Positions 229 to 46,426 of a stretch of DNA of 64,000 nucleotides are shown piece by piece (the stretch's first letter is position 1; each line of letters opens with the position of its first letter). Origin of the DNA: Ekhidna sp. (lineage in GTDB: Bacteria > Bacteroidota > Bacteroidia > Cytophagales > Cyclobacteriaceae); assembly GCF_965247405.1 (NCBI RefSeq), contig NZ_OZ252014.1, forward strand, positions 2,938,569-3,002,568, written 5' to 3'. The notes beneath the pieces are model-generated. The model was not told where the DNA came from. It saw only the letters and a list, made by a program, of their open reading frames with translations, and searched no databases. Made by a program: the position numbers and the translations under genes.

Positions 229-322
229 AATAGGTCTTAATTGTATAGCCGGTTTGATTCCGAAAATTCAGTGGTTAAATTTAGTGCTTCGACTTTAACT
301 AACCTTCCAAAATGAACCTAAC

Positions 323-3814: not shown

Positions 3815-3817
3815 TTT

Positions 3818-5054: not shown

Positions 5055-5115
5055 TTGATTAAACAGATAATGGTGTGAATCTGTTAGCTATCTTTGCACA
5101 CCGATTTTCAAAAAT

Positions 5116-6294
5116 ATGCAATCAGAGTCAATCAATTTTGATGATACCGCAACTGCTTTTGCGCATCGATCAACGTCGGAGCTGAAGAACTCACATTTTG
5201 TTTTCTCCACCATGAGTATGCCCTGGATGGTGAAAACAGGTACAGTGATGACTAACCTTGCACTGAAGTTGAAATTACCTGTTAAAGGGATCATTAAGAA
5301 GACAATCTTCAATCAATTTTGTGGAGGAGAATCCATCAAGGATTGCAGTAATACCATTAATAGACTAGGTGATCATAACGTGCAGACCATCCTTGATTAT
5401 TCGGTGGAGGGACTGAAAAATGAAGATGGGTATGATGCCACCAAGGAAGAGGCTTTGAGAGTTATTGATTTTGCTTCGACCAATGATCATATTCCTTTTT
5501 GTGTATTAAAGCTTTCCGGATTGGGATCTACCGACTTGATGACGAAGGCACAGAATAAGGAGCAGCTTACTGAGATTGAAAAAACGAAACTCTATAACTG
5601 TGAGCAGCGTGTAGATGAGATCGTACACAAAGCAGGTAGCAAGGGTCTGATGGTCATGATTGATGCTGAGGAATCATGGTTTCAAAGCTTTATTGATGGT
5701 ATAGCTTATCGCATGATGGCTAAATACAATAAGGAACGACCGATTGTCTATAACACCTATCAAATGTATCGTCATGATATGTTGGACAGGCTTACACGAG
5801 CACAGATCGAAGCAGAGGTGAGTGGTTATTACCTGGGAGCTAAATTGGTAAGAGGTGCTTACATGGAAAAGGAAAGAGACAGAGCAGAAGAAATGGGATA
5901 CGAATCCCCTATTCATGCGACCAAGGAAGCTGTTGATAAGGATTACGACGAAGCGTTGAAGTTTTGTATGCAGCACATTGACCGTATGGGGCTATGTGCC
6001 GGGACACATAATGAAAATTCTAGCAAGTTGTTGGCCAGGCTTATGGAAGAGCAGGAAATATCCAAGAAAGACAATCGAGTTTTTTTTGCTCAGTTATTAG
6101 GAATGAGTGACAACATTTCATTCAAGCTGGCTGACTTGGGCTACAATGTGGCTAAGTATGTTCCTTATGGTCCGGTTGAAAAAGTACTTCCCTATCTATT
6201 CAGAAGAGCAGAAGAAAACACATCCATAGCTGGGCAAAGTGGAAGAGAATATACCCTGGTAAAAAAGGAACTAAGAAGACGTAAGTCTGCCTGA
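5116..6294 (+). CDS. Proline dehydrogenase
   Basis: 392 aa of the monofunctional PutA-type proline dehydrogenase pattern: LDYSVEG, MIDAEESW, AKLVRGAY, FAQLLGMSD, KYVPYGP, YLFRRAEEN. Confidence 0.85.
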   Translation: MQSESINFDDTATAFAHRSTSELKNSHFVFSTMSMPWMVKTGTVMTNLALKLKLPVKGIIKKTIFNQFCGGESIKDCSNTINRLGDHNVQTILDYSVEGLKNEDGYDATKEEALRVIDFASTNDHIPFCVLKLSGLGSTDLMTKAQNKEQLTEIEKTKLYNCEQRVDEIVHKAGSKGLMVMIDAEESWFQSFIDGIAYRMMAKYNKERPIVYNTYQMYRHDMLDRLTRAQIEAEVSGYYLGAKLVRGAYMEKERDRAEEMGYESPIHATKEAVDKDYDEALKFCMQHIDRMGLCAGTHNENSSKLLARLMEEQEISKKDNRVFFAQLLGMSDNISFKLADLGYNVAKYVPYGPVEKVLPYLFRRAEENTSIAGQSGREYTLVKKELRRRKSA

Positions 6295-6332
6295 TAATCA
6301 GATTTTAAAAATAAGAATACAAGCAAAACAAA

Positions 6333-8051
6333 ATGCAGTTAAGCGAACAGGAAATCCAACGAAGAAAATCCAGAGAGGAACTGATGGCAATGGGGGTTGA
6401 CCCATACCCTGCCGAATCATTTGATGTGAATATGACTGCCAAACACATCAAGAAAAATTTTGATAGTCGCCCCGGTGATTACACCAACATTTCAATGGCT
6501 GGACGAATCATGAGCAGAAGGATCATGGGATCTGCATCGTTCGCTGAGCTGCAAGATTCAAGTGGCCGTATTCAGATCTATTTACGAAGAGATGATATCT
6601 GCCCGGGTGAGGATAAATCACTCTACAATGATGTGTTCAAAAAGAAGTTGGATATCGGCGACATTATTGGTATCAAAGGCTATGTCTTTAAAACAGAGGT
6701 AGGAGAAATCTCTGTTCATGTAACTGAGCTAAAGCTGCTGACTAAATCACTTCGTCCGCTTCCAATAGTGAAGGAAACGACTGATGAAGAGGGCAATAAG
6801 AAGACGTATGATGCATTCAAAGATCCCGAGCAGCGATATCGTCAACGGTACCTGGATTTGATTGTGAATCCTGAAGTGAAAGACACCTTCATTCAACGGA
6901 CTAAGTTGGTAAACTCCATACGGGAATTTCTTGCTAATAAAGGCTATCTGGAAGTTGAAACGCCTATTCTTCAGCCACTTTATGGAGGTGCGGCTGCTCG
7001 TCCGTTCAAAACGCACCATAACACATTGGATATGACGCTCTATTTACGCATCGCGAATGAGCTGTATCTGAAAAGACTAATTGTAGGCGGATACGATGGC
7101 GTGTTTGAGTTTGCCAAGGATTTTCGTAATGAGGGAATGAGCCGGTTCCACAACCCGGAATTCACTCAAGTAGAGCTTTATGTTGCTTACAAGGATTACA
7201 ACTGGATGATGGACCTCATGGAAGCCATGATCGAAAAAGTAGCACTTGACCTTCACGGAGATACCAAAGTGCAGGTTGGTGAAAACGTAATTAATTTCCA
7301 GCGTCCGTGGAAGCGCTTTACCATGTTTGAGGCGATTGAGCACTTTACCGAAATTGACATTTCGGAAATGGATGAGAAAGAATTAAGAGAAACCGCTAAG
7401 AAGCTGGAAGTGCCTTTGGACGATACGATGGCAAAGGGAAAAATCATCGATGAGATCTTCGGTGAGAAATGTGAGCCGTTATTGATCCAGCCAACATTTA
7501 TTACCGATTATCCTGTGGAGATGTCTCCGCTGACAAAAAAACACCGATCCAGGGAAGGACTTGTGGAGCGATTCGAAGCAATCTGTAACGGAAAAGAAAT
7601 CATGAACTCTTACTCAGAGTTGAATGATCCAGTGGATCAGCGGGAGCGATTTGAGGAGCAGCTGGAGTTGGGTAAAAGAGGGGACGATGAGGCCATGACA
7701 CTGGATGAGGATTTCCTTCGTGCCTTGGAATTTGGAATGCCTCCTACCGCCGGCGTGGGTCTCGGCATTGATCGATTGACCATGATCATGACCAATTCCA
7801 ATTCCATCCAGGATGTACTCTTCTTCCCTCAGATGCGACCGGAAGTGAAGTCCCGAGCAGCCGAGCTTGAAGGTGACGCAAAAGCTGTGTTTGAGATGTT
7901 GGAAAAAGAAGAAAAGGTCGAGCTGAATGCACTCAAAGATCAGTCTGGACTGTCGAATAAGAAATGGGATAAAGCCATCAAAAAGCTTACTCAAGGTGGA
8001 TTTGCTAAGGTGAACAAGACCGATGAGGGGTTGTTTGTGGAGGTGGTTTAA
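6333..8051 (+). CDS. lysS: Lysine--tRNA ligase (class II) with Bacteroidota-type C-terminal extension
   Basis: 572 aa. It has an OB-fold N-domain, class II motifs ([20 protein letters not shown]; [20 protein letters not shown]) and a charged C-terminal tail of about 70 aa. Confidence 0.95.
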
Positions 8052-8066
8052 CAAATCCGTATTTAT

Positions 8067-8101
8067 GTCATTTCGAACCGGAGGTTCGATGGTGAGAAAT
8101 C
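8067..8101. repeat. GTCATTTCGA...GAGAAATC type short palindromic intergenic repeat (copy 1)
   Basis: The sequence is gtcatttcgaaccggaggttcgatggtgagaaatc. It shares its termini with the copy at 10533-10556 (gtcatttcgacgataggagaaatc) and has an internal cgaacc/ggttcg palindrome. Confidence 0.6.
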
Positions 8102-8132
8102 TATACCTGGTGGTTTTTGTACTTTTATTTCG

Positions 8133-8206
8133 TTTCGTGAGGACACGAACCGTGGCTGAGATCAGACATTGAGATTCCTAAGTCTCGTCGTTCCTCGCAA
8201 GGGAAA
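8133..8206. repeat. MITE-like element with imperfect terminal inverted repeats, short copy
   Basis: It starts with the 20-mer tttcgtgaggacacgaaccg, identical to 8475-8494. It ends gagattcctaagtctcgtcgttcctcgcaagggaaaa, matching the right end of the longer copy. Confidence 0.6.
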
Positions 8207-8212
8207 ATGAAT

Positions 8213-8238
8213 TTTGTGGAGGTGGATTATTTAATCCC
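8213..8238 (+). repeat. Duplicate of the lysS 3' terminus
   Basis: tttgtggaggtgg at 8034-8046 (the last lysS codons) recurs at 8214-8226 and is followed by a related A/T-rich ...aatcc tail. The two copies bracket about 180 bp of repeat DNA. Confidence 0.5.
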
Positions 8239-8264
8239 ACCCCTGACCTCTCCCAGGAGGGGAA
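8237..8264. repeat. CCACCCCTG...GGAGGGGAA hairpin repeat (copy 1)
   Basis: ccacccctgacctctcccaggaggggaa resembles ccacccctgccactccttggaaaggaggggaa at 53769-53800. It forms a cccct/agggg stem. Confidence 0.5.
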
Positions 8265-8474
8265 TTACATTGTCCAAAGATTTTCTAGTTAAGCCAGGAA
8301 TTCCCCCTTTGAAGGCGGTCCGACGTTTAGTGGTGTGGTGGAAATGTGCGAGGGAGGGGGATGTAATTCTCTTATCCACCCAACCCCAACAGCGGCATCT
8401 TCTTCAACTTGTGATAAGTCTAAGCTATTGTATTGGTTTGTGTCTCCACAAACCAAAATCTTTAAAAAATGGTA

Positions 8475-8615
8475 TTTCGTGAGGACACGAACCGAGGTGG
8501 TAGAAGCCCTATTCCTTTGGGAGGCCCAGAGGCCGAGTCATGGGAATCTCGTTCAAGGTCAGCAAATGAATATGAGATTCCCAAGTCTCGTTCGTGCCTC
8601 ACTCGCAAGGGAATA
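8475..8615. repeat. MITE-like element with imperfect terminal inverted repeats, long copy
   Basis: The left end tttcgtgaggacacgaaccg and right end gttcgtgcctcactcgcaagggaata are inverted complements (cgtgaggacacgaac versus the reverse complement cgagtgaggcacgaac). Both termini are shared with the copy at 8133-8206. Confidence 0.6.
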
Positions 8616-8641
8616 CCGACAAATTAAAAGGGAGATGTTAA

Positions 8642-9070
8642 CTATTTCTCACCCAAACCCAACAATGGGAGCTGTTTCACTTTATGATAAGTCAGAGCCG
8701 CTTTAATACATTGCTTCAATTCTTTTTCAGGTACTTTTTCATCCAGCTTAAATACAATGGCACGAGTGGTTTCATAATTGAATAGGTCGCCGAAAGCCAA
8801 CTGAAAGGATGGTACAAGTTTGCTGGTACATTTGAAGTACATGGCGTACTGATCCGGTTTCTTTTCCTTCCAATCGATGCGTATGGTGCTGCCATGCTTG
8901 GTGAGGTAGCTGGGCTCTCCCCATTTCAGTGTTTCTTCCAGATCAGTGATGCCAATTTCATCAGCTGTTTCTAAGATGAGTTTGCGGAGATGTACAACTT
9001 TTTCCTTCGCTTGAGGAGGGTAGGAGGAGATGACGGATTCTATTGTAGTAGGATCAACTTTCATTTTCAT
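8642..9070 (-). CDS. DUF1801 (YdhG-like) domain protein
   Basis: The ORF reaches 9091, but the likely start is MKMKVD at 9070. The pattern HLRKLILETADEIGI...EETLKWGEPSYL...GSTIRIDWKEK is typical of DUF1801 proteins. Confidence 0.65.
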   Translation of the reverse strand: MKMKVDPTTIESVISSYPPQAKEKVVHLRKLILETADEIGITDLEETLKWGEPSYLTKHGSTIRIDWKEKKPDQYAMYFKCTSKLVPSFQLAFGDLFNYETTRAIVFKLDEKVPEKELKQCIKAALTYHKVKQLPLLGLGEK

Positions 9071-9140
9071 CAAAGATAGAGGAGTAAACAAAAACCGCCA
9101 TCCCTGACGGTTGATGTCTTATGATTCTTTCGGTTTGAGA

Positions 9141-9518
9141 TTATGCAAACTCAGGCATAGGGGTGTAGAAGAATTGCTCCTTCACCACTTTTCCATCGTT
9201 TACCTCATACACGCATATCTCATCCATGTTGATTGGTTGATCCATACCTTTAAGGGTCACTTTGGATTTCATGGTCATTGAGAAGAAATTTTCCGCAACA
9301 ATGGGGTCAGAAATTTCCATCGTGTGAAATTCAGCGACCATTCCATGCCATTCTTCGGCTTTTTTCGCAATGGCGTCCAATCCCTGTACAGTACCCCAAA
9401 AGGCATCTTCCGGCTCTACACTTTTGATGTCAGGTGAGTAAAATTTTTGGATGCATTCATCCCATTTTCCTTCTTTGCACATGGCTACAAATTCGTTGGC
9501 TACTTCTTGAGTTGTCAT
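9141..9518 (-). CDS. SnoaL-like / NTF2-fold protein
   Basis: 125 aa. It has the size and alpha+beta cone pattern of small SnoaL/NTF2-like proteins: MTTQEVANEFVAMCKEGKWDECIQKFYSPD. Confidence 0.6.
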   Translation of the reverse strand: MTTQEVANEFVAMCKEGKWDECIQKFYSPDIKSVEPEDAFWGTVQGLDAIAKKAEEWHGMVAEFHTMEISDPIVAENFFSMTMKSKVTLKGMDQPINMDEICVYEVNDGKVVKEQFFYTPMPEFA

Positions 9519-9651
9519 GATTTTTATCTGTTAGTATTAAACATGATTCAAAGAAATGAGTTGGAGTGACAGCCCTATGTCACTGACTTTAGTCGAAATA
9601 AAAAAAATCTTCGTTTGTGGTGAATAAAATTTTCCGATCTTGGCGGATTCG

Positions 9652-10524
9652 ATGCGGAAGCTACTTTTCATACTTACCCTGTTGGTCTTTCATTTTAGCC
9701 ATTCACAATACTTGGATTTGGCTAAACTGGAGTATACCTATCTGCCAGGTGAGGATTCCAATTTTGAATATCAGCGTCAGCGAGCGCTATTCAATATTCC
9801 GTTCAAAGTAAGAGATAAAGGCTACTTCTTTGCAGGACTTGATTTCAGCAACATTCAGTTTAAGTACAAGGAAGATCAGGACTCTTACGATAAAAGGGAG
9901 ACAGAAAATTTCAAGTCCCTGGATCTGGCGATCTCATATATTTATGAACTAACGAATGATTGGTATGTGGGTATGCAGGTTGCTCCTTCCTTTACCAGCA
10001 ACCTGGAAGGGAGATTAGTAAGAAAGGACTTTCTGGTTTCGGGTCTTGTAGTGTTTGTAAAAAATAAGATGAATCCGGAGGAGGTAAAGAAGCCACACCG
10101 AATCATTGCAGGATTATATTATTCCAGCAATACTCGTTTCCCGGCTCCATTTCCTTTTTTCAGTTATTACCGAAAGTTTCATGAAAAGTGGTCGTACACC
10201 ATTGGGGGACCATCCTCAAGTCTGAAGTACTATTTTAATGAGAAAAACCGGTTGCAACTTTATGCCGAAGGCGATGGATTTAACTCAAATATTCAAAATG
10301 GGGTCTTGATCAATGATGAGATATTTGCGGATCGTTTACGAATGTTTTTGATACTAGCTGGACTCAGGTATGAATACAGTATCTCAGACTATTTTGAAGC
10401 ATATGTAAATCTGACCCGTACGGTGTTTGCGGATGTGCAGCTTAGGGAAGGGAAAGAAAATGTATTTTTCCCATCGATTGATAATGCCATGCTTTACCGG
10501 ATAGGAGTGAGATGTAGGATTTAA
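9652..10524 (+). CDS. Putative outer-membrane beta-barrel protein
   Basis: The signal peptide is MRKLLFILTLLVFHFSHSQ (the ORF opens at 9640; the second ATG at 9652 is preferred). Alternating aromatic/hydrophilic strands run throughout, as expected for an OM beta-barrel. Confidence 0.5.
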   Translation: MRKLLFILTLLVFHFSHSQYLDLAKLEYTYLPGEDSNFEYQRQRALFNIPFKVRDKGYFFAGLDFSNIQFKYKEDQDSYDKRETENFKSLDLAISYIYELTNDWYVGMQVAPSFTSNLEGRLVRKDFLVSGLVVFVKNKMNPEEVKKPHRIIAGLYYSSNTRFPAPFPFFSYYRKFHEKWSYTIGGPSSSLKYYFNEKNRLQLYAEGDGFNSNIQNGVLINDEIFADRLRMFLILAGLRYEYSISDYFEAYVNLTRTVFADVQLREGKENVFFPSIDNAMLYRIGVRCRI

Positions 10525-37009: not shown

Positions 37010-37034
37010 AAAAAGCCCACAGTTTGTGGGCTTT
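37010..37034 (-). terminator. Probable ancestral ssrA terminator
   Basis: On the minus strand it reads aaagcccacaaactgtgggcttttt. It lies immediately downstream of the outermost ssrA 3'-end relic at 37037-37054. Confidence 0.5.
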
Positions 37035-37036
37035 GA

Positions 37037-37054
37037 AGTGGAGTCGGAGGGATT
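37037..37054 (-). repeat. Relic copy of ssrA 3' end (older att site)
   Basis: agtggagtcggagggatt is identical to 46397-46414. Beyond it the sequence diverges but still folds as a T-arm-like hairpin (ggagggat...atccctcc). Confidence 0.55.
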
Positions 37055-37189: not shown

Positions 37190-37218
37190 GTGGAGTCGGA
37201 GGGATTCGAACCCTCGTC
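37190..37218 (-). repeat. att repeat (distal copy) of the ssrA-integrated element
   Basis: gtggagtcggagggattcgaaccctcgtc is a 29/29 match to 46398-46426. Confidence 0.85.
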
Positions 37219-37297
37219 TATATTTGATAAGTGACTGATTATGAGTTGTTTAATAAAATATTAGGCTGATTGATTGGTTCAAAATCATGTTTTTATT

Positions 37298-37315
37298 GAC
37301 CTATTTACTCAACCT
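37298..37315. repeat. Sub-terminal 18-bp repeat (candidate integrase arm site), left end
   Basis: gacctatttactcaacct matches gacctatttactcgacct at 46323-46340 in 17 of 18 positions, in the same orientation. Each copy lies 60-80 bp inside the att core. Confidence 0.4.
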
Positions 37316-37322
37316 ATTTTTT

Positions 37323-39017
37323 TTAATAAGATTGAGTTCTCAAATCTCGCTTGTTCTGATAATTTAAAACTCCTACCAAGTCTTTTCCATCTCCTTTTAG
37401 TTCACCGGTGATGTTTAGATTGATTGTTTGTCCGGCTATATTGTTGGCGAAGCTGCCACGGCCTGAGCTAGAGCCTCTTGAGCCACCTCCAGAGCCGCCA
37501 CCTCCTAAATTTGACCTAGCATTTGCTACTGCTGCCTTTAAAGCTGCTCCGGCCGCTATTGCTGCTATTGATAATCCAAGCGTCAATTCAGGTCTACCAC
37601 TAAACAGAGAGTTTCTTATTGATATTAAAAGTTCTGACATGGCTTTCGATGCTAACCCTAATTTGATTAACTGATCTCCTATAGTATCAGCTATTCCTAA
37701 TCCTGCCCGCTCCAGAGCTGCTTGAAAACCTTCTGATCCTACAGCAACACCAAATCCTGAGAAAGCATTAGCTAACTCCTGTTGCATCTGCATAACCTCA
37801 CTTATTATAGGCTTTGCCATTTCTTTAAATCGGTCTGCATTCGCTTGCATTGCTTCAAAGTATGAATTGTCTAGCTGCAATGGCCCTACCTCTGCCTGCG
37901 GTGCTACTCCTACAGATTGACGGTTGGTGAGGGTGTTATTCCTTTGGTTTTGCCAATCTTGGTATGCTTTATTAGCTCTTTGGCGTTCTGCTGCTTCTTG
38001 AGCTACAGCATCGTTTATTTCTTTTTGTCTGGCTAAAAGACCATCTAATATTCCTTGTTTTTTTGCCCAGACTTCTCCATCTACCTTACCCGCTTCTTCT
38101 ACTTCTTTTCGATACCTTTTTATCAGTATGGATAGCTGTGTTTGTTCTGTGATTTGACCTTTTAGGCGTTCGGTCATTTCTTTTGCTCCTGCAATGGCAA
38201 GATCATAAGCTTCACCAAACCCTCTTAATCTTATTTGGCTTTCTGCATCTCCACCTAATGCTGATACGGCTGTATTTGCAAAATCTAGCATTGCTGCAAT
38301 CACTCCGCTTGACTGATCGCCTATGGTTTTCTTTAGTTGGGTGAAGTTATCCTCTAGGTTGGATATTTTACCTCCTACCGTCTCGGAGATAGCAGCCATA
38401 GATCCGCTCACTCCTGTAGCATCTCCCAGGCTTAGTATGTAATCACGGATGGCTTGGTCTGTGAAGTTTACCTGCGTTTCTACACCTTTGAATGTAAACC
38501 TGACCTTATCGCCTTCTTTTTGTGATCGTATACCAAATTCTTTTAATCGCTCAAACTCTCCTACCTGTGCGTCTATTACGGCTTCTGCTAATTGATCAAA
38601 GTCTTTGCCTGTGGATGCTGCTAAGTCGCCTAGCTTACGCATTTCGTTTGAAGTGGGTACAAATCCCTGATTTGCCAGCTTTACAAATGCGCCTGTAAGG
38701 CCGTCTACCTGGAAGGGTGTCTTAGATGCAAACTCAGTGATCATCTGCATCGCTTTTTGTGCTTCGCTCCCTGATCCTAATGTGTTGGATAGTACCGCTT
38801 CCATTTTTTGGAACTTGGCCGTGGTTTCTATCACGGATTTTCCAAAGGATACCATCGTGCCTACGGCGAACATTCCGGCTAGTGTTCCTTTGATTTGTCT
38901 GCTTATATTGGAAGACTGCTGCTGAAATCTGGATAGTGAACCTTTGGCGTTATTAAGGTCTTTTTCCAGCCGCTTTTTGTCGGCCATCAGGCGATATACT
39001 AATGCTTCGCTGCTCAT
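37323..39017 (-). CDS. Phage tail tape measure protein
   Basis: 564 aa. It has the TP901/PhageMin_Tail-type core (ITEFASKTPFQVDGLTGAFVKLANQGFVPTSNEMRKLGDLAASTGKDFDQLAEAVIDAQVGEFERLKEFGI), coiled coils and a Gly/Ser-rich C-terminus. Confidence 0.8.
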   Translation of the reverse strand: MSSEALVYRLMADKKRLEKDLNNAKGSLSRFQQQSSNISRQIKGTLAGMFAVGTMVSFGKSVIETTAKFQKMEAVLSNTLGSGSEAQKAMQMITEFASKTPFQVDGLTGAFVKLANQGFVPTSNEMRKLGDLAASTGKDFDQLAEAVIDAQVGEFERLKEFGIRSQKEGDKVRFTFKGVETQVNFTDQAIRDYILSLGDATGVSGSMAAISETVGGKISNLEDNFTQLKKTIGDQSSGVIAAMLDFANTAVSALGGDAESQIRLRGFGEAYDLAIAGAKEMTERLKGQITEQTQLSILIKRYRKEVEEAGKVDGEVWAKKQGILDGLLARQKEINDAVAQEAAERQRANKAYQDWQNQRNNTLTNRQSVGVAPQAEVGPLQLDNSYFEAMQANADRFKEMAKPIISEVMQMQQELANAFSGFGVAVGSEGFQAALERAGLGIADTIGDQLIKLGLASKAMSELLISIRNSLFSGRPELTLGLSIAAIAAGAALKAAVANARSNLGGGGSGGGSRGSSSGRGSFANNIAGQTINLNITGELKGDGKDLVGVLNYQNKRDLRTQSY

Positions 39018-39526
39018 CTAATTGCTTTCTTTATCTGGTCTCTCATTAGCTTTTTTGCTGCTTGCTCAAAGCTGGCTTTAATGGTGGTTTTTGCTTTGTC
39101 TGCAAAACGGGCGATGTAGTTGTCTCCGCCTCCTACACTCTTGCCCTGAAATGCGCCCCTGTTTGCGCCTGTGCCTCTAGTGGTTCTTTGGCCTGTATCG
39201 TCTTTCTGGTATAGCTTGGCTACTCCCTGTGCGCTCCAGTCTCTGTCTCCCATGGGTATATCCGGTCCATCTATAACAATACGTGCGCCGGGCAAATATC
39301 CCTTTCGACTCATCTTCCTCCTTACCATTCGGGCAAGTAGCAGGGCTTTACTTATCCCGTCTTTACTGGTAGATCCTTTGAATGCTTTTATCCCTGCTCT
39401 TACCTCATGTACTCCGGGGATTAGTGCTTTGCTGGCGGCACGGTTTAGGTCTTTGTCTGATAGCTGCAACTTATCCAGCACGTTTAGTGCTTTCTTGAAG
39501 TCTCTATCGTCAAATCCTGTTTTCAT
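39014..39526 (-). CDS. Phage structural protein, HK97 gp10-like (tentative)
   Basis: 170 aa. Its stop overlaps the tape measure start as ATGA. The N-terminal pattern FKKALNVLDKL...AASKALIPGVHEVRAGIK resembles gp10-family tail-completion proteins. Confidence 0.4.
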   Translation of the reverse strand: MKTGFDDRDFKKALNVLDKLQLSDKDLNRAASKALIPGVHEVRAGIKAFKGSTSKDGISKALLLARMVRRKMSRKGYLPGARIVIDGPDIPMGDRDWSAQGVAKLYQKDDTGQRTTRGTGANRGAFQGKSVGGGDNYIARFADKAKTTIKASFEQAAKKLMRDQIKKAIR

Positions 39527-39624
39527 TCCCCCTCAGTTGAAAAAAGGGAACTCCTCATTTAATGGAAATTCAAATAATGGACGTTTTTGAAATTGAAGCG
39601 AGAGGAGCCCCTTTGCCAAACTAT

Positions 39625-39759
39625 TTAACCAAACTCTTTCTTGTGTTCCTTTATAACATCCTTGATGGATGAGGCTTTGTACTCTTTACCTTGCTCGAAT
39701 ACCTCCAACTTGCCGTTGTTATATGCCTGAAATGTTCTAAGTGCTTTTAATTTTTCCAT
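39625..39759 (-). CDS. Small phage ORF (44 aa) coupled to capsid gene
   Basis: The protein is MEKLKALRTFQAYNNGKLEVFEQGKEYKASSIKDVIKEHKKEFG. Its ATG shares one base with the capsid stop (TAATG). It is below the size cut-off of the ORF track. Confidence 0.3.
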   Translation of the reverse strand: MEKLKALRTFQAYNNGKLEVFEQGKEYKASSIKDVIKEHKKEFG

Positions 39760-40964
39760 TATGCTGCTGCTATGTATCTGATTTTAGTAAATGATTCTGC
39801 GTATCGTAGTGTCACTGCCATTCTCATGGTCAACCTAAATACGGTCTGATCATAGTCTGATCTTCTGTAAGGATCAATGAAAACATTAGGATTTAATCGA
39901 ATGGACACAACTGCATCTGAGAAGTTCCCCAAGATTGAAGTTGAGAGATCAGTACCACTTCCAACCGTTCCATTAATTGGTAAAGCCTGACTTATTAGTA
40001 CATCAACATCATCCAGGAATTCTGGCTTCATTAATGGCTGATTGTCACTTGCTTGAAGGTTAGACAGATCCGCCAATGTTCTAGGGTGATGAATAAGCGA
40101 TAAACTATCTGAGTTACCTTTAGCTGTAAGGATTGCTTCTTTAGCATCAATAAGCTTACCGTAATCTGCAAAAGCTGCACCATCACCTGAACCAAGCGAA
40201 ACAACGTTAATTCCTGATTGATTAATTATTCCGGTTGGTTCGTTAGATGAACCAGAACCAGCCAAAGCGGCCGCATCTAAAGCCTCAGATGCTCTTCTTT
40301 GTAAGTGGTTATCTAGGAATTGGGCACCTACTACCATATCCTGCAACACCTCGTTAGGAACAGTAACATTTAAAGCGAACTTTGTGAACGTTGGTGATAT
40401 AGCTGTAAAAGCTGGGTCACTATCTGCTATTTGATCAGATTCTGCATACCAGGCACCTGTTACATTAGTGGATACCTTTGCCTCTTCAAACTTGTTTCCG
40501 TTCGGCTCTGATTGTAAATCTCTAATAACTCCACCGGCCTTGGTGAATGATGAAAAGTTAAATAGCCCCGGAACGATTTGATTTAATTGGTGAGTAGGGA
40601 TCAAATCGCTATCACTGGACGAGCTAAGAGCTTTATTTTGTAGCTCTAGTTTTTTGAGAGCTTTTGTTTGTAGGATTTTGCCTAATGAAAATTCCTTGTC
40701 TGTTTTTGTTCCATTGGAATGAACATTAAAATCTCCGGTCAGAGTTTTACCTTCCTCTGCTGCTCGTTGGCCTTCTCTTTCTTCAGCCTTCTTTGCTGCT
40801 GTTAATGTTTTGCTTAGATCGTTCAGCTCCTTTTGAACGTCAACGATCTCATTGGTGGCATTATTCTGATCTTTCTTATCAGTGCTGCTCTTGATTTTAG
40901 CTAGGAGTTTTTCTTCTTTTTCCTCCAGCTGGGCAATTTTTGCCTCTAATTCATGTATCTCCAT
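39759..40964 (-). CDS. HK97-fold major capsid protein with N-terminal coiled-coil (delta/scaffold-like) domain
   Basis: 401 aa directly downstream of the prohead protease. It has an N-terminal heptad-rich segment of about 80 aa and a capsid-type motif ALDAAALAGSGSSNEPTGIIN. Confidence 0.8.
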   Translation of the reverse strand: MEIHELEAKIAQLEEKEEKLLAKIKSSTDKKDQNNATNEIVDVQKELNDLSKTLTAAKKAEEREGQRAAEEGKTLTGDFNVHSNGTKTDKEFSLGKILQTKALKKLELQNKALSSSSDSDLIPTHQLNQIVPGLFNFSSFTKAGGVIRDLQSEPNGNKFEEAKVSTNVTGAWYAESDQIADSDPAFTAISPTFTKFALNVTVPNEVLQDMVVGAQFLDNHLQRRASEALDAAALAGSGSSNEPTGIINQSGINVVSLGSGDGAAFADYGKLIDAKEAILTAKGNSDSLSLIHHPRTLADLSNLQASDNQPLMKPEFLDDVDVLISQALPINGTVGSGTDLSTSILGNFSDAVVSIRLNPNVFIDPYRRSDYDQTVFRLTMRMAVTLRYAESFTKIRYIAAA

Positions 40965-40987
40965 GTTTTGTCCTTTTTTTGAGTTTT

Positions 40988-41581
40988 TTATTTGTAAGTC
41001 CTTAGTCTTTTGTTCCTTGCTGCATTCGCCAGTACGTAATCAACTTTTTGGCCATGGTCGATTACTAGCGTAGGCGTACTGCTGTTACTGCCTCTCAACA
41101 CCGCACTACATTCAATTAATTCTATATTTTTTACCACATAGAAAAGTGTGGCTTCTTCCGCCTTTTCTGGGTTAGCAATCTGATTTATATACTGATCCCA
41201 CACGGCCTTTTCTTTCGGGCTTTCTTTGTCGTTTATGGCTAACTCTATCTCACGATAGCGCATCCCAATTGAATGTTGTTTTATTAGTCCTAGCTTGTAA
41301 GAGTTGTGAATTTTTTCATCTAGTTCCTCTAATACTTCTGATCGATAAATAAGGCATTCAGTAGATCCGGTTGCGCTAATTCCCAGCTTTTCAAAACTTA
41401 CCTGTTCGGCAGTAACATTCTTTACTATGCCTACATGACCGTCACTGAATTGCTTATGATCCTTGAGATGGTTCCATCCTTCCTTTCGGTAAATAGACTC
41501 ATTGTAATTACCTGGTATATGAACATCTAAATGACTGTCCATAATATTGGTTGAATTGGCAACTACTTTTACGGTTATCAT
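40988..41581 (-). CDS. HK97-family prohead serine protease
   Basis: 197 aa. It has a His region (DSHLDVHIPG), a Ser region (KQHSIGMRY) and a C-terminal IELIECSAVLRGSNSSTP, matching the S78/U35 protease pattern. Its position upstream of the capsid gene also fits. Confidence 0.7.
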   Translation of the reverse strand: MITVKVVANSTNIMDSHLDVHIPGNYNESIYRKEGWNHLKDHKQFSDGHVGIVKNVTAEQVSFEKLGISATGSTECLIYRSEVLEELDEKIHNSYKLGLIKQHSIGMRYREIELAINDKESPKEKAVWDQYINQIANPEKAEEATLFYVVKNIELIECSAVLRGSNSSTPTLVIDHGQKVDYVLANAARNKRLRTYK

Positions 41582-41736
41582 TCTTCCTCCTTGATGATTT
41601 TAACCTCTACCTCTAAAGGGTCAGTGTATTTAATGGAGTCCTTCTTTTCCTGAATAAGTGCTTCTTTGTTCTCTCTCAGATATTTGAGGCGTTCCTTTTT
41701 GTCTTTGATGGTGGTGGGGTCTATTGGCTTATTCAT
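41578..41736 (-). CDS. Small phage ORF (52 aa) coupled to protease gene
   Basis: The protein is MNKPIDPTTIKDKKERLKYLRENKEALIQEKKDSIKYTDPLEVEVKIIKEEE. Its stop overlaps the protease start as ATGA. It is below the ORF-track cut-off. Confidence 0.35.
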   Translation of the reverse strand: MNKPIDPTTIKDKKERLKYLRENKEALIQEKKDSIKYTDPLEVEVKIIKEEE

Positions 41737-42436
41737 AAGTTTTTCTAATTTCTCTATTTATCCACCCATAGAATGCTTTCCTATTATTAGCATAATCGTC
41801 TGCAATTTCACCAGTGACAATTTTATTCATGATTGTAAAGAATGACTTTTTAAGAATTGTAACATCATCCATTAGGACCATATAATTTGAGTTAAACACT
41901 TCTGAATGATCTATCTTTTCCCAGGTTGATTTAGAATCCCTTTTAATCACTTTTCCAAATAGATATTGATCTTTACTTTCTGGAGCATAATCAAAACATT
42001 TGCCGTCACTGTATAAATAAATGGATCCTGTAGATTTACTAAGTCTAACCTCACTCGTGATAGGATAGTAGCTTGCTTCAGTACTTTTTTGTCTAATTAA
42101 ATAATCCAGTACTAAGTGCGGCGGGTGATTAAATTTCCCCAAATGGTAGCCTTCACCAGAATCCATAGCACAACGATTCATAGCTGTTGGAACATCGTTA
42201 AGGGTTCTGGATGTGGCTAGAACATAGATATAGTATCCTATTTCCTGATGTTCAATTTTATCATAGCCTTTTCTGAAATCAAACATTCCCGGATTCCAGA
42301 GACGTATGCTTTTAGCTACCTCTTCACATTTCCTTTTTCCAAAAAGATCATGAAGAAACGGTAATCCAACTAACTGTCCTATTGTCATTTTTGAGTGATT
42401 TAAAAGTTTATTCAAAAGTACGATGCTGAATTGCAT
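41729..42436 (-). CDS. Hypothetical protein, lead gene of the structural operon
   Basis: 235 aa with no family recognised. It occupies the position where a portal or terminase gene would normally precede the prohead protease. Confidence 0.5.
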   Translation of the reverse strand: MQFSIVLLNKLLNHSKMTIGQLVGLPFLHDLFGKRKCEEVAKSIRLWNPGMFDFRKGYDKIEHQEIGYYIYVLATSRTLNDVPTAMNRCAMDSGEGYHLGKFNHPPHLVLDYLIRQKSTEASYYPITSEVRLSKSTGSIYLYSDGKCFDYAPESKDQYLFGKVIKRDSKSTWEKIDHSEVFNSNYMVLMDDVTILKKSFFTIMNKIVTGEIADDYANNRKAFYGWINREIRKTYE

Positions 42437-42441
42437 TAAGG

Positions 42442-42517
42442 AGTAAACTTATTTGATAATAACAAAATTGGGAATTAATAAATACGAATTTGTTTTTATT
42501 ATGAAAATAAGTTTACT
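42442..42517. promoter_or_regulatory. Divergent control region with 13-bp perfect inverted repeat
   Basis: agtaaacttattt (42442-42454) and aaataagtttact (42505-42517) bracket a 50-bp A/T-rich spacer between the two divergent modules. Confidence 0.45.
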
Positions 42518-42526
42518 TTGCTCATT

Positions 42527-42721
42527 ATGAGGACTAAACTAGAAGTATTTACCACCGATTACTTTCAAAAGGAGCTAGGTAACCCTCATAGAACTATCAA
42601 GGAATCTTTTGAAATCGCAAATCAAAAATTCTGCAACCACTGCCAGTTCTATGCCTACAGCGACTACCGAAGTTATCAGGTCACCTTAAAAAAGTCGAAA
42701 ACCAAAAAAGAGAACGTATGA
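42527..42721 (+). CDS. Small hypothetical protein (first gene of rightward module)
   Basis: 64 aa counted from the ATG at 42527 (the ORF opens at the TTG at 42518). It contains CNHCQ and is basic at the C-terminus. A regulator or excisionase role is possible but unsupported. Confidence 0.4.
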   Translation: MRTKLEVFTTDYFQKELGNPHRTIKESFEIANQKFCNHCQFYAYSDYRSYQVTLKKSKTKKENV

Positions 42722-43176
42722 AAACTAACGAAACTGCATTATCAGGTATTCAAGCCAGCATAGAACAGAAGAAGAGGGAAGCTTTCAAGAAGCTTCGACA
42801 GTTATACACTCACGTACACGGAAAGCCAGCACCGTATTATAACGACGATACGGCGAACTCCTTAACCCGTTGCATTATTGACTACCTGGAGTGTAAAGGA
42901 CATCAAGCTGAACGAGTGAATTGTTTTGGCAATCCAATTCCTCAGGGCAATGGTCTCTACAAGTTTGGGAAAACGAATATGAATTTAGGTACTAGCGACA
43001 TCCATGCCGTTTGTGAAGGCATTGCTTTGAAAATCGAAGTAAAGATAGGATCTGATCGAATGAGCAGCTACCAAAAACAATACCGTGATCAGGTTATTGC
43101 TGCAGGTGGAAAATACTTTGTGGCGAGAAGTTTTGACAAGTTTTTGATTTGGTTTCATAATGAGTTTGGAGGATGA
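42718..43176 (+). CDS. VRR-NUC / PD-(D/E)xK nuclease
   Basis: GTSDIHAVCEGIALKIEVKIGSDRMSSYQKQYRDQVIAAGGKYFVA fits the D...E-x-K core and the S..Q...aGG tail of VRR-NUC domains. Confidence 0.65.
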   Translation: MKTNETALSGIQASIEQKKREAFKKLRQLYTHVHGKPAPYYNDDTANSLTRCIIDYLECKGHQAERVNCFGNPIPQGNGLYKFGKTNMNLGTSDIHAVCEGIALKIEVKIGSDRMSSYQKQYRDQVIAAGGKYFVARSFDKFLIWFHNEFGG

Positions 43177-43616
43177 GTGAAAATAGTGACGCTAGATACT
43201 TAAGTCTAAAAAATAGCTTTCTTATGTATTATGAGCATACTGAAGATTTTGAGCTATTAACGGATGAACAGATAGGGAAGCTCATGAGGGCTGTCGATTC
43301 TTTTGAACGTCATGGAGAAACAGGGGTAGAATTCGAAGACCCATTATCTAAAAGCCTTTACAGAAAGATGGAAAAAGTGTTATCTGAGAATAAAATCAAG
43401 TACATCGAGAAATGTAAAAGAAACGGCAGTAATGCCAAGAAAGATCCTGGCAAACCAAGAGAGCTATCCTATCAGTTTGTGAGTGCCTTGGTTAAAAAAC
43501 ACTCATCGCTAAGCATTAGCAATCATTTCAAAATGCTTGAAAAAAATGGCGCTGATGGTAAGCCTCTTTGGAGCTTTATAGATAAAAAAACTGAGAATAA
43601 TTTTTTAGTCAAATGA
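43173..43616 (+). CDS. Phage protein, DUF6291-like (tentative replication-associated)
   Basis: 147 aa. The pattern LTDEQIGKLMRAV...GE...EDPLSKSLYRKMEKVLSENKIKYIEKCKRNGSNAKK resembles DUF6291 proteins of Bacteroidota phages. Confidence 0.35.
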   Translation: MSENSDARYLSLKNSFLMYYEHTEDFELLTDEQIGKLMRAVDSFERHGETGVEFEDPLSKSLYRKMEKVLSENKIKYIEKCKRNGSNAKKDPGKPRELSYQFVSALVKKHSSLSISNHFKMLEKNGADGKPLWSFIDKKTENNFLVK

Positions 43617-43669
43617 AAAGCCAAACAAACCCAGTGGGTTTATTACGATACTACATGGGTTGCGATATA

Positions 43670-43715
43670 ATCTATATCTATATCTGTTTCCCTAATCTGG
43701 ATCTATATCTATATC
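43670..43715. repeat. Iteron-like direct repeats
   Basis: The 15-mer atctatatctatatc occurs at 43670-43684 and 43701-43715, with 31 bp between starts. It lies in a segment that is probably non-coding (43617-43747). Confidence 0.5.
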
Positions 43716-43747
43716 AGATAATACCATTTCGCGAAAATTTTGAAAAA

Positions 43748-43915
43748 ATGAAAATCAACACAAAGGTAAAAACCCGGATGCTTCAGCTCTTAGATGAGAT
43801 GATATATGAAATCCGTGAGATTGAAAACACTCATCCTTTCAGCAATATGCCACCGGAGGATCTCCCAGTCATTTACCTATTGAAGAAAATAGCAGAACTA
43901 GAATTAGAACTATAA
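43748..43915 (+). CDS. Small hypothetical phage protein
   Basis: 55 aa counted from the ATG at 43748 (MKINTKVKTRMLQLL...). The longer ORF-track version starting at 43613 would read through the iterons, so it is not preferred. Confidence 0.35.
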   Translation: MKINTKVKTRMLQLLDEMIYEIREIENTHPFSNMPPEDLPVIYLLKKIAELELEL

Positions 43916-43927
43916 ACCAATACAATT

Positions 43928-44092
43928 ATGAAAAATGAGAACGAAAAACCACTAGCAACTTTCGAAAAAGAAGGAATTACCCATGGGTTCTTTCAGGCTC
44001 CTGAAAGTGATTATCCATTAATCGAGATCATCAAACGTCTAGACACTATGGAAACTGTCTCTCATGTTTTTGACAGGGAGCGTAAAAACTGA
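43928..44092 (+). CDS. Small hypothetical phage protein
   Basis: 54 aa (MKNENEKPLATFEKEGITHGFFQAPESDYPLIEIIKRLDTMETVSHVFDRERKN). It fills a gap in the rightward module and is below the ORF-track cut-off. Confidence 0.3.
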   Translation: MKNENEKPLATFEKEGITHGFFQAPESDYPLIEIIKRLDTMETVSHVFDRERKN

Positions 44093-44125
44093 AAATGAAT
44101 TTTAGAACATAAAAATCAAATTACA

Positions 44126-44416
44126 ATGAACAACATTAACAAGAAAATTGAAGGTTTAGAATCTCAACTAGGCAAAAACCTTGAGATAGACTGGACAGAT
44201 TCTATTACAAGAATACTTAATGAAACATGCATAAATAATGCGTTGCTTCTAGGGCTTACTAAAAGGCTCATTGAAAAGGATCCATTGGTAACCGATGTGG
44301 AAAAAGAGGTAGAAGAGGAGATAGAGGAAGCTGAAGAAAGAGCAGAGAAAATGTATGTTGAAATTCTTTCCGATTTGATTAATAAAACAGAAAAAAGGAG
44401 AAATAATGGAAACTAA
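44126..44416 (+). CDS. Small acidic coiled-coil phage protein
   Basis: 96 aa with a Glu-rich helix (EKEVEEEIEEAEERAEKMYVE). Confidence 0.4.
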   Translation: MNNINKKIEGLESQLGKNLEIDWTDSITRILNETCINNALLLGLTKRLIEKDPLVTDVEKEVEEEIEEAEERAEKMYVEILSDLINKTEKRRNNGN

Positions 44417-44660
44417 AAAGAATACAAGTTCAGGGCCTAGTTTAAACGTGAGAGGCTATAACAAACTGAAAAGGGCTGAAGCTATGATCGCGGGGGCAAT
44501 GGCTCTTATTGAGGATGATACCCCTAATTCATGTATTACCCTATTGGATAATGCAATGATGAATATTCGAGAAATAACCAATAAAATCGGAAGTCGAGAA
44601 TTGCACTTTTCCACTGTAGAGGAAAGCCGAAAAGAACCAAATTTAGAGCATCTTTATTGA
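44406..44660 (+). CDS. Small hypothetical phage protein
   Basis: 84 aa. It overlaps the previous ORF by 11 nt. Confidence 0.4.
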   Translation: METKKNTSSGPSLNVRGYNKLKRAEAMIAGAMALIEDDTPNSCITLLDNAMMNIREITNKIGSRELHFSTVEESRKEPNLEHLY

Positions 44661-44806
44661 GATCAGTAAATTGTAACATTCTAATAAAATGCTTTCTAAA
44701 AAATGGTCACGTAAAAAAGAAATCAGGGATTGGGTTTCGGCTCGATCCCTAAAAAACAATTAAGCATCCCCCTCCCCAAATTTTTAACAATAAACTGCAA
44801 ATAATT

Positions 44807-45040
44807 ATGAAATACGAAGACGCACTTGATTCTATCAAAAGACAGTTAGAAGATTGCCCGATTTATTTCTTTGAAGATACAAAAGAGGTTCTCGGTAATC
44901 TAAAATCTCAGTATGATAAAATATATCAGGGCCAACTATCAGAATCGGAAATAGACAGGCTTAGTAAAGCTGTAATCAACATTCATTTTGAAAACATGTT
45001 CAATGAACTGTTGGACATCAAGAATGAATTACTGTCATGA
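44807..45040 (+). CDS. Small hypothetical phage protein upstream of integrase
   Basis: 77 aa. Its stop overlaps the integrase start as ATGA. The position is compatible with an excisionase or accessory factor, but no motif supports this. Confidence 0.4.
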   Translation: MKYEDALDSIKRQLEDCPIYFFEDTKEVLGNLKSQYDKIYQGQLSESEIDRLSKAVINIHFENMFNELLDIKNELLS

Positions 45041-46302
45041 ACCCGCTGCAAATTCCTAAAAGGCATAGGGATTCAAAGCTAGGAATGTACGTCCGATGTA
45101 ATCACTGTAAGCAAAACATTACAGGTAAATGCGTCAAGACTGGCTTAAAGGTTTATACCTGTAAGCATGGCGAAAACCATCGGTATGTGAGTAAGGTATT
45201 TGATAAATCCAAAAACCACATGGTAACCGTTAAAACCTGGCCTAAGGAACTAAGAGACTTTAAGGAATTTTTTCGCTTGCATCTCCAGGCAATCAATAAC
45301 TATGAAAGTAGTCATAGAACTATTAATAGTAAGCCCGGACTAATGGGTGATTGCTTACGGATGTTTATTGATTATTTAGCAGATGTAGGGGTGCCTAGTT
45401 ATGAGCGAAAGAACCTTACTGAGAAGTACATCAAAAGCCAGGTTAATAACCTCAAGGATTTAAAGAGAGCTCTTTCAGATGAAGGAATGAACACTGATTT
45501 TCTAGTTGTTACTGAGTTCTCTAAAAGCCATGTTGGTATAGTTCACGACTACTTAGAAAGTAAGTATGCTGCCAAGACCTACAATCATAAGGTTTCAACT
45601 TATAGAGCCTTTTTTGCCTATTTAATTAAACAGGGTTACGAAATTGACAACTACTTTGATGAGGTTAGAAAGAAGCACACTCAATCTAGAGTTAAAATTA
45701 TCCCGATCCCTTTATTTAAGGAATTATGCGATACTGTTACTCCGATAGGAGGTATCAAGATTGAGAGACAAATCAGGAACGGAAAAGAGCGAGTTTATCA
45801 GAGAAATCTTTATAGGAAATGGCTAATAGATGTGTGGCGTTTTGCTATGTATTCCGGGGCAAGGAATAACGAGATAGCATTCATAAAAGTAAAAGACATT
45901 GAAACTGACTACATACGATGCAGAAACAATAAAGTAAGCACGAAGGAAAAAGAAGTATTTCGTTTAATCTACTTCACCAATGAGTTGATTGAGTTGGTTG
46001 ATCAACTAAAAAAGGGATTGTCAAATGATGATTATCTTCTTGCCCCGGATGAGTTAAATCGTAGAAATATGATTGATGTGGCTTCTAAAGCCTTCACTCA
46101 TTACATGAATAAAATTAGTGATGAAGGTTTCCAGCTATACGATTGTAGATCAACCTACTCAACTGAATTAAGAAAGGTGTTTGATTCTGAAACGGCGCAT
46201 TTATTAGGAGACCTTCATGCCAGATCTACAACAACCATTCAGAATTACATTAACAAGCAGGAATTATTCAAAATCCATAAAGGAAAAAAGCTATTTGGGT
46301 AG
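45037..46302 (+). CDS. Tyrosine-type site-specific integrase with N-terminal Cys/His cluster
   Basis: 421 aa. Candidate catalytic residues are R in YSGARNNEI, an H/R box in LYDCRSTYSTEL and H...Y in GDLHARSTTTIQNYI. The N-terminus has CNHC-x8-C...CKHGENH. It is adjacent to att and the tmRNA. Confidence 0.85.
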   Translation: MNPLQIPKRHRDSKLGMYVRCNHCKQNITGKCVKTGLKVYTCKHGENHRYVSKVFDKSKNHMVTVKTWPKELRDFKEFFRLHLQAINNYESSHRTINSKPGLMGDCLRMFIDYLADVGVPSYERKNLTEKYIKSQVNNLKDLKRALSDEGMNTDFLVVTEFSKSHVGIVHDYLESKYAAKTYNHKVSTYRAFFAYLIKQGYEIDNYFDEVRKKHTQSRVKIIPIPLFKELCDTVTPIGGIKIERQIRNGKERVYQRNLYRKWLIDVWRFAMYSGARNNEIAFIKVKDIETDYIRCRNNKVSTKEKEVFRLIYFTNELIELVDQLKKGLSNDDYLLAPDELNRRNMIDVASKAFTHYMNKISDEGFQLYDCRSTYSTELRKVFDSETAHLLGDLHARSTTTIQNYINKQELFKIHKGKKLFG

Positions 46303-46322
46303 TGGATTTTTGTTATCTACTC

Positions 46323-46340
46323 GACCTATTTACTCGACCT
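46323..46340. repeat. Sub-terminal 18-bp repeat (candidate integrase arm site), right end
   Basis: gacctatttactcgacct. In addition, tactcgacct itself is repeated at 46317-46326 and 46331-46340. Confidence 0.4.
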
Positions 46341-46361
46341 TCATACCCTAAAAAAAATGAA

Positions 46362-46395
46362 AACCGCCCATAAATCACTTTAAAGGCGGTTTTTC
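46362..46395. terminator. Bidirectional terminator between integrase and ssrA
   Basis: The stem is aaccgcc / ggcggtt. T-runs follow it on the plus strand (ttttt) and on the minus strand (ttcatttttttt). Confidence 0.5.
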
Positions 46396-46397
46396 CA

Positions 46398-46426
46398 GTG
46401 GAGTCGGAGGGATTCGAACCCTCGTC
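46398..46426 (-). repeat. att repeat (proximal copy) = 3' end of functional tmRNA
   Basis: It is a 29/29 match to 37190-37218 and forms the T-arm and the 3' acceptor strand of ssrA. Confidence 0.85.

Follow-up and report, generated by a model that had tools for sequence, protein, structure and literature searches.

A mobile element of 9,237 bp (positions 37190-46426) is inserted at the transfer-messenger RNA (tmRNA) gene, ssrA, of an Ekhidna sp. chromosome. It lies within the window treated here, the whole 64-kb stretch of contig NZ_OZ252014.1 that was analysed. The element is bounded by 29-bp direct repeats that are 100% identical to each other, the right-hand copy forming the 3' end of the tmRNA gene. 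A tyrosine integrase gene adjoins the tmRNA gene and the repeat of its 3' end stands at the far end of the insert, the arrangement by which integrative elements at ssrA are recognised. A first-pass annotation of this DNA had described an ssrA-integrated element with intact ends, which the tmRNA gene and the perfect repeats bear out, and had proposed it as a new type of phage satellite. The reading favoured here, which we hold at about an even chance, is that the element is a one-off, non-autonomous reduced derivative of a temperate siphovirus at ssrA, of the cryptic prophage kind.

The insert consists of two divergent operons (Table 1), a leftward one with the virion genes and a rightward one with early genes and the integrase gene as its last member. 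In the direction of transcription, the leftward operon runs from an open reading frame (ORF) of 235 aa through ORFs of 52 and 197 aa to the 401-aa capsid gene and a 44-aa ORF, then crosses a 98-nt gap and ends with a 170-aa ORF and the gene of a 564-aa tape measure protein. Only three ORFs in the element reach 300 aa or more (tape measure, 564 aa; capsid, 401 aa; integrase, 421 aa), as had been noted before, and family matches agree with these identities. Scans against Pfam, PHROGs, NCBIfam and PADLOC found no portal, terminase, connector, tail tube, chaperone, baseplate, holin or endolysin, and when the complete gene sets of four related phages were run by tblastn (E<5) over the entire window, no missing gene was matched. 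The first-pass annotation was therefore right that the portal, terminase, tail and lysis genes are absent. In the same four databases, no small terminase, HNH, primase/Rep or repressor was recognised among the 16 ORFs; divergent analogues of satellite type may be present among the orphan ORFs. The element is certainly non-autonomous, and its transfer in particles would need the portal, terminase, connectors, tail and lysis genes of a helper.

Table 1. Features of the element and its borders, by position in the window.
Feature	Positions	Strand	Basis or remark
tmRNA terminator hairpin	37012-37034		22/23 identical to native tmRNA 3' flank in L229
Relic of tmRNA 3' end, 18-19 nt	37036-37054		directly after terminator hairpin, 135 bp outside attL
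attL core	37190-37218		29-bp copy of tmRNA 3' end
Putative arm-type integrase site GACCTATTTACTCAACCT	37298-37315		18-nt motif, 8 nt from tape measure stop
Tape measure protein, 564 aa, full length	37323-39017	-	PF20155, E=3e-9; PHROG tape-measure families down to 1e-59
170-aa ORF	39014-39526	-	conserved gene directly upstream of tape measure
98-nt junction	39527-39624		where related phages hold 3.4-4.7 kb
44-aa ORF	39625-39759	-	after capsid; weak likeness to 56-62-aa post-capsid ORFs of L001/L002
HK97-fold major capsid protein, 401 aa	39759-40964	-	PF05065, E=6e-33; phrog_10
Prohead serine protease, catalytic and C-terminal part, 197 aa	40988-41581	-	starts where phage catalytic domain starts
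Prohead protease, N-terminal 52 codons	41578-41736	-	aligns to residues 1 to ~50 of phage proteases
235-aa orphan ORF	41729-42436	-	first gene of leftward operon; singleton
Eight small ORFs (~54-152 aa), rightward operon	42518-45040	+	ORF list, family scans
PD-(D/E)XK/VRR-NUC-like nuclease	42718-43176	+	family scans
DUF6291 protein	43173-43616	+	family scans
Hairpin and two copies of ATCTATATCTATATC	43617-43748		intergenic; inside listed '100-aa ORF'
Tyrosine integrase, 421 aa	45037-46302	+	PF00589, phrog_1; last rightward gene, adjoins tmRNA gene
Putative arm-type motif, tandem pair TATCTACTCGACC / TATTTACTCGACC	46314-46340		integrase side of core
attR core	46398-46426		final 29 nt of tmRNA gene
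tmRNA gene (ssrA)	46396/46398-46796	-	ARAGORN; Rfam RF00023, 150 bits, full length

Relatives were sought among the best-matching loci from GTDB representative genomes and IMG/VR, and among the contigs of a protein collection of 5.8 billion clusters. All ten element proteins that were looked up are singletons at 90% identity, recorded under Ekhidna sp. only. Single-protein scans of IMG/VR with the capsid, the integrase and the 235-, 147- and 152-aa ORFs gave no close relative, nor did a GTDB scan with the integrase. An alignment of the tape measure family brought in 80 GTDB loci and 80 IMG/VR loci. Among all the loci and contigs searched there is no second element of equally reduced content. 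The first-pass annotation had itself named the lack of conserved relatives as counting against its proposal, and as far as these searches reach there are none. It had also named portal or terminase homology in the 235-aa or small ORFs as fatal to the idea, and on this point the proposal survives, as no such homology was found there.

The virion genes are of phage ancestry. The five closest homologues of the tape measure are 46-63% identical and 535-589 aa long, and all five lie in phage virion modules. Four of their five contigs run from the large terminase (TerL) and/or portal gene to the distal tail in a single order; the fifth (L086) is a 5.7-kb fragment limited to the tape measure and its two neighbours, the upstream ORF on one side and the next large gene on the other. 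Against L001, whose tape measure has 563 aa, identity is 63-66% over the whole length of the protein and 74% over 1.47 kb of DNA. The lengths lend no support to the suggestion, made at first pass, that the element could remodel tail length, since its tape measure of 564 aa falls within the range of these five phage homologues. The family at large has more than 1,500 matches in Bacteroidota, typically of 550-650 aa, with N-terminal 250 residues that are 55-70% identical.

Four phage contigs (L001, L002, L083 and L084), all from uncultured metagenomic Bacteroidota siphoviruses, were used for comparison. In the phages, the head genes are arranged as TerL, small ORFs, portal (390-435 aa), a 35-41-aa ORF, protease (263-279 aa), capsid (439-448 aa) and a 47-62-aa ORF. 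These are followed by an HCP-like protein, further ORFs, tail completion, tail tube, a chaperone-like ORF, a 167-174-aa ORF, the tape measure, a protein of 825-1,291 aa and other tail genes. The protease, capsid, 170-aa ORF and tape measure of the element form a subset of this module, in unchanged order and orientation. With the four phages the element shares the protease (46-63% identity), the 170-aa ORF (67-72%, in three of the four) and the tape measure (47-66%), whereas it lacks TerL, portal, connectors, tail completion, tube, chaperone, distal tail and lysis genes, and the body of its capsid is of another type. Defective prophages are recognised by nearest relatives that sit in complete phages in the same order and by missing morphogenesis, packaging and lysis genes, and the element presents each of these features. 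Signs of decay are confined to one frameshifted gene, the protease; there are zero truncated remnants, and two junctions fall at gene boundaries.

The 52-aa and 197-aa ORFs are a single protease gene split by a one-frame shift at the ATGA of 41578-41581. In all eight relatives, comprising the four phage contigs and four from IMG/VR, the protease is undivided (an ORF of 263-279 aa or a single frame). The first-pass annotation had stated that all ORFs are intact, which does not hold for this gene. It had also taken three overlaps as evidence of translational coupling; the overlaps exist (ATGA at 39014-17, TAATG at 39757-61 and ATGA at 41578-81), but the last of them is the frameshift itself. The 197-aa ORF is 46-63% identical to the proteases of L083, L084, L002 and L001 (best L083, 63%) and keeps every invariant column of the five-sequence alignment, including the HLxDH and QHS motifs. 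Its basic C-terminal tail resembles the tails of the phage proteases. Two of the five family members match Pfam Peptidase_S78, weakly, and a PDB profile search with the family returned nothing.

The capsid protein begins with a coiled coil of about 100 aa, a delta or scaffold-like domain, as the first-pass annotation had recognised. Its best relative among 1.84 billion cluster representatives is 39% identical, and scans of metagenome and viral contigs with a capsid alignment recovered only relatives of at most 31% identity, on fragmentary contigs that are silent on gene content. Over its first 69 aa the element capsid shares 54% identity with that of L084; overall, its identity to the capsids of the group is 26-33%. 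Complete phages of this group differ among themselves in the same way, with capsids 24-27% identical where the proteases are 43-52% identical, and in other phages with this protease family the capsids are undetectable by tblastn with the element capsid as query. Judging from these alignments, capsid swapping is normal in the L001/L083 phage group. A divergent capsid body as an adaptation specific to satellites was considered and rejected, capsid types being equally mosaic among complete phages. Across L001, L002, L083, L084 and L314-L337 the capsid has been exchanged among at least three barely alignable types (24-33% identity), and the point of exchange lies about 70 codons into the delta domain. 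In the same phages, conservation is good (43-64% in most comparisons) for the protease, for the tape measure and for the ORF that precedes it.

Between capsid and tape measure the element is much shorter than the phages. The distance from the capsid end to the tape measure start is 3.4-4.7 kb in every locus in which both were detected (6 from GTDB, about 17 from IMG/VR) and 0.74 kb in the element. None of those IMG/VR contigs has terminal repeats. The connector, tail-completion, tail-tube and chaperone genes of the phages occupy the position of the 98-nt junction. The 44-aa ORF on its capsid side may be shortened at the C-terminus; its likeness to the ORFs of L001 and L002 comes from alignment by eye and is not significant by BLAST.

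On the other side of the junction, the 170-aa ORF is 67-72% identical to ORFs of 170-174 aa at the same position in L083, L001 and L002 (best L083, 72%), and 31-35% identical to its counterpart in L084. It has no Pfam or NCBIfam match at E<0.1 and belongs to no PHROG family, a PDB profile search came back empty, and a single-sequence AlphaFold2 (AF2) model reached a pLDDT of 43, which is unusable. The label 'gp10-like', given at first pass, thus finds no support in these family searches, and the gene is better described as a conserved ORF that directly precedes the tape measure gene and probably encodes an accessory protein of the tape measure or of tail assembly. An alternative identity as the frameshifted 'T' extension of a G/GT tail chaperone was rejected: the upstream ORF is in the +1 frame in three phages and in the -1 frame in one, and every homologue of the 170-aa ORF starts at its own conserved Met.

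The tape measure family shows a marked division of the protein. In 32 sequences the N-terminal 250 aa contain 61 invariant columns, and the remaining 300-400 aa are nearly unalignable; the N-terminal domain is common to phages whose virion genes are otherwise unrelated. Four GTDB loci of about 9.7-16 kb from Bacteroidota prophages (L005, L011, L040 and L082) encode proteins of 873-1,206 aa with the same N-terminal domain, located 0-2 kb from an opposite-strand ORF of integrase size and a tRNA gene, the integrase being confirmed only in L011. The upstream genes in L011 and L005 are large (~640-1,640 aa), without a Pfam match in L011, and the architecture is unlike that of the L001/L083 group.

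The integrase belongs to a family that serves different elements. Seven relatives are 41-49% identical to it. Two of them, in L229 and L230 (48-49%), occupy the same site beside tmRNA, SiaC and dnaX genes with the downstream synteny kept, and accompany other cargo; the identical 29-bp core also lies within the tmRNA genes of both. One related integrase is found in a 46-kb phage contig with lysis genes, where it ends an operon of small ORFs as it does in the element, and another adjoins YqaJ/HNH genes. None of the integrase relatives shares any other gene with the element. The ssrA site is thus a hot spot for one integrase family with interchangeable cargo, and the cargo of the element is unique so far. 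A further relative, 43% identical, follows a primase-helicase (636 aa), a helix-turn-helix (HTH) protein and small ORFs in a 7.4-kb contig (L233), which may be a small primase-bearing integrative element of the same integrase family, similar to a phage-inducible chromosomal island (PICI). The cargo of L230 (positions 1-9800, GCA_028285685.1) includes several TIR-domain proteins and a SLATT protein and looks like a defence island.

This sister island bears on the possibility that the element is domesticated and interferes with other phages. Its virion proteins would then poison the assembly of superinfecting phages or form empty shells resembling encapsulins, without transfer of the element itself. 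That only these ORFs have been kept, intact and at gene boundaries, would fit such a role, as would the TIR and SLATT defence-type genes that accompany a related integrase at this site; for portal-less elements with a major capsid protein, a transition from procapsid to encapsulin has also been proposed. However, PADLOC returned no match of note, the Pfam scan found no encapsulin (Linocin) or cargo signature, and a singleton locus offers no evidence of selection. We know of no precedent for a tape measure in defence, and consider this explanation improbable.

The borders of the element point to more than one integration. The motif CTAnTTACTCRACC occurs three times around the att core: a single copy lies towards the tape measure, and a tandem pair towards the integrase. 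From their position and repetition these are putative arm-type integrase binding sites, and they would bound an attP of about 200 bp. Outside the left core, the copy of the tmRNA 3' end behind the terminator hairpin has the look of an attL from an earlier integrant, which deletion later cut down to about 135 bp. A relic att next to a terminator hairpin would mean that an earlier integrant at ssrA was almost wholly deleted, and it points to serial integration at this site.

The reading of the element as a reduced prophage is preferred because its virion genes have phage ancestry and phage order, its protease is frameshifted, it is a singleton and the closest relatives of its tape measure all lie in phage modules. 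It is preferred also because satellite-type packaging, replication and regulatory functions are not recognisable, because a tape measure without tube and chaperone has no evident use, because the relic att indicates an earlier near-total deletion at the site, and because related integrases carry other cargo. The ancestor would have been a Bacteroidota phage with a virion module of the L001/L083 type. Deletion or recombination would have removed three blocks, namely terminase and portal, the stretch from the connectors through the chaperone, and everything distal to the tape measure, and most early and lysis functions would likewise have been lost. What was left over would be the integrase with a complete attP, a short early operon, the frameshifted protease, the capsid with a small ORF, and the pair of 170-aa ORF and tape measure. 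Such an element could probably still excise and reintegrate with its own integrase, and would be unable to build or fill a capsid or tail alone. Its structural genes would be leftovers and not a purpose-made set of tools for hijacking; on infection by a related phage, the proteins could at most become mixed into the assembly of that phage.

Several observations sit poorly with this history. Among the loci and contigs searched there was no parent prophage that shares integrase and capsid with the element, so that the deletion history has to be inferred. The tblastn searches with the four phages (E<5) detected no pseudogene debris of the missing genes in the window, and, leaving aside the protease, every long ORF (564, 401 and 421 aa) is open. 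The tape measure runs its full length, aligning to the last residues of its homologues with its stop 8 nt from the putative arm site, and the N-terminal segment of the protease begins at the start of the phage gene. The 197-aa piece may be made from its own ATG, which overlaps the upstream stop. The ATG of the 170-aa ORF is the exact point at which DNA homology to L083 ends, and the 98 nt before this ATG bear no trace of the chaperone gene that overlaps the start of this ORF in the phages. By the layout of arm motifs on both sides of the core, attP looks complete, and both cores are identical. With about 90% of the genome coding, random deletions would rarely leave such junctions. The junctions suggest either that the retained genes mattered during the rearrangement, or that recombination took place at module boundaries, as is usual in phage mosaicism.

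The same tidiness is what a genuine helper-dependent satellite would show, an explanation that is possible but that we rate as unlikely. Such a satellite would excise and form its own small procapsid, from the scaffold-domain capsid and the protease, on the portal that an infecting L001/L083-group phage brings in. As helper, this phage would give terminase, connectors, tail and lysis, and the pair of 170-aa ORF and tape measure would complete helper tails or compete for them. Two junctions on gene boundaries without gene debris, a leftward operon tightly packed with overlaps of 1-8 nt, and an intact integrase with identical 29-bp cores and arm-type repeats on both sides are all consistent with this. 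A genome of 9.2 kb would suit a small capsid. Both the capsid delta domain, in its first 69 aa, and the protease, in its C-terminal tail, resemble their counterparts in the candidate helper group, as co-assembly would require, and the repeat-bearing intergenic region could be an origin. Entities of about 9 kb with integrase and capsid and without portal, terminase or tail have moreover been reported from metagenomes (bioRxiv 10.1101/2025.06.18.659913). Against this, the element is a singleton without a relative of the same content, its five closest tape measure relatives are all in phage modules, and a frameshift splits its protease gene. In the family scans and comparisons with the phage contigs, neither a small terminase nor cos/pac homology, a replication initiator or a master repressor could be recognised. 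The tape measure has the length usual in the candidate helpers, which gives no obvious advantage, and no helper resides within the 64-kb window.

The proposal of a new satellite type therefore stands only in part. The element is non-autonomous and two of its junctions fall on gene boundaries, but it is a single locus with a broken protease and parts of ordinary phages. A single locus with tidy ORFs and no portal is insufficient to call a new satellite family. Support is at least equal for the alternative that the first-pass annotation had mentioned, namely a prophage that underwent clean internal deletions. The stronger claim, that this is the first Bacteroidota satellite bringing only a capsid, a protease and a tape-measure pair to the portal, terminase, connectors and tail of a helper from the L001/L083 group, is a shade more doubtful than a satellite in general.

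The 235-aa ORF has no match in Pfam, PHROGs, NCBIfam or PADLOC and its single-sequence AF2 model has a pLDDT of 34, which is unusable. Direct comparison with the L001 portal showed no similarity, and the stretch is matched by none of the portal and terminase proteins of the four phages. In the rightward operon, the listed '100-aa ORF' probably truly starts at the ATG at 43749, downstream of the intergenic hairpin and repeats, which could be a candidate operator or replication origin. No homology in non-coding DNA (cos/pac) was detected between the element and the phage contigs. A sigma-70 promoter scan was uninformative, with counts at the level of shuffled sequence; Bacteroidota promoters differ from the sigma-70 model. 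Shifts of GC and GC3 along the element were considered as a sign of separate sources and do not discriminate, the phages spanning the same range. The flanks are housekeeping, with SDR and phosphorylase genes on the left and dnaX, an SLT/LysM protein, an M16 peptidase and an M24 peptidase on the right, and the window contains no helper prophage. The tag peptide of the tmRNA is GESNYAMAA according to ARAGORN.

Among known systems, capsid-forming PICIs (cf-PICIs) resemble the element in being integrative, in having their own HK97-type capsid and protease (frameshifted in the element), and in lacking both lysis genes and a full tail module. They are defined, however, by a full packaging module of portal, adaptor, connector, HNH, small and large terminase (10.1101/2025.02.11.637232), none of which the element has. 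In addition, cf-PICIs measure 10-18 kb and have no tape measure, in contrast to the 9.2 kb of the element with its tape measure. With VEIMEs (virion-encapsidated integrative mobile elements), P4-like satellites, the PICIs of the Staphylococcus aureus pathogenicity island (SaPI) type and PICI-like elements (PLEs), the element shares a small size, integration at the tRNA-type sites that such elements often use, and dependence on a helper. Marine VEIMEs encode no major capsid gene (PMC9618062). P4 and SaPIs rely on capsid redirection by Sid or Cpm, a primase/Rep, a small terminase or cos, and regulators, which were not detected in the element; its 16 ORFs gave no family match to Sid/Psu, CpmA/B, primase/Rep, small terminase or master repressor. 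If the element were a satellite after all, it would sit between the capsid-redirecting satellites (P4, SaPI) and the cf-PICIs, with a foreign HK97 capsid that nucleates on the portal of the helper. Its own shell and protease with a borrowed portal would be a new strategy, the first in marine Cytophagales, and phages of the L001/L083 group would be the candidate helpers.

Small portal-less elements with a capsid gene are already on record. 'Mini' or 'twilight' HK97 entities of about 8.9 kb carry an integrase, a capsid protein, a scaffold and RepA, without portal, terminase or tail (bioRxiv 10.1101/2025.06.18.659913). A tail gene accompanies the capsid in only 4.3% of 536 twilight genomes with a capsid, and a rare lone tape measure was noted (10.1101/2025.06.18.659913). 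The element belongs to the same size class as these entities (5-11.6 kb; Aguilar et al. preprint), and likewise has an integrase, a capsid with scaffold function and neither portal nor terminase. The entities form recurrent clades with terminally repeated contigs, are mostly from the human gut, and encode RepA/helicase and encapsulin-like capsid proteins. In contrast, the element, a singleton, carries a protease plus the tape-measure pair, has no Rep/helicase match and no virome relative, and its capsid matches only PF05065. An autonomous miniature virus with a portal-less and tail-less particle, as suggested for other mini HK97 entities, is a highly improbable account of the Ekhidna element, for which the family scans found no packaging enzyme, Rep protein or lysis function. 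A tape measure is also useless without a tail tube, and all the virion genes derive from ordinary tailed phages.

Cryptic prophages offer the closest match to the preferred reading of a reduced siphovirus. As a stripped-down prophage, the element would be an ordinary genome feature that shows how far a prophage can be pared while its integration module still looks in working order, and it would be plausible raw material for satellites. CP4-57, which resides at ssrA in Escherichia coli, is a cryptic (defective) prophage. The element agrees with cryptic prophages in its ssrA site, in the integrase and att repeats, in a subset of phage genes with relatives in complete phages, in the loss of essential functions and in one disrupted gene. 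It differs from them in being unusually compact and free of debris, with two junctions on gene boundaries and its virion genes arranged in two tidy blocks.

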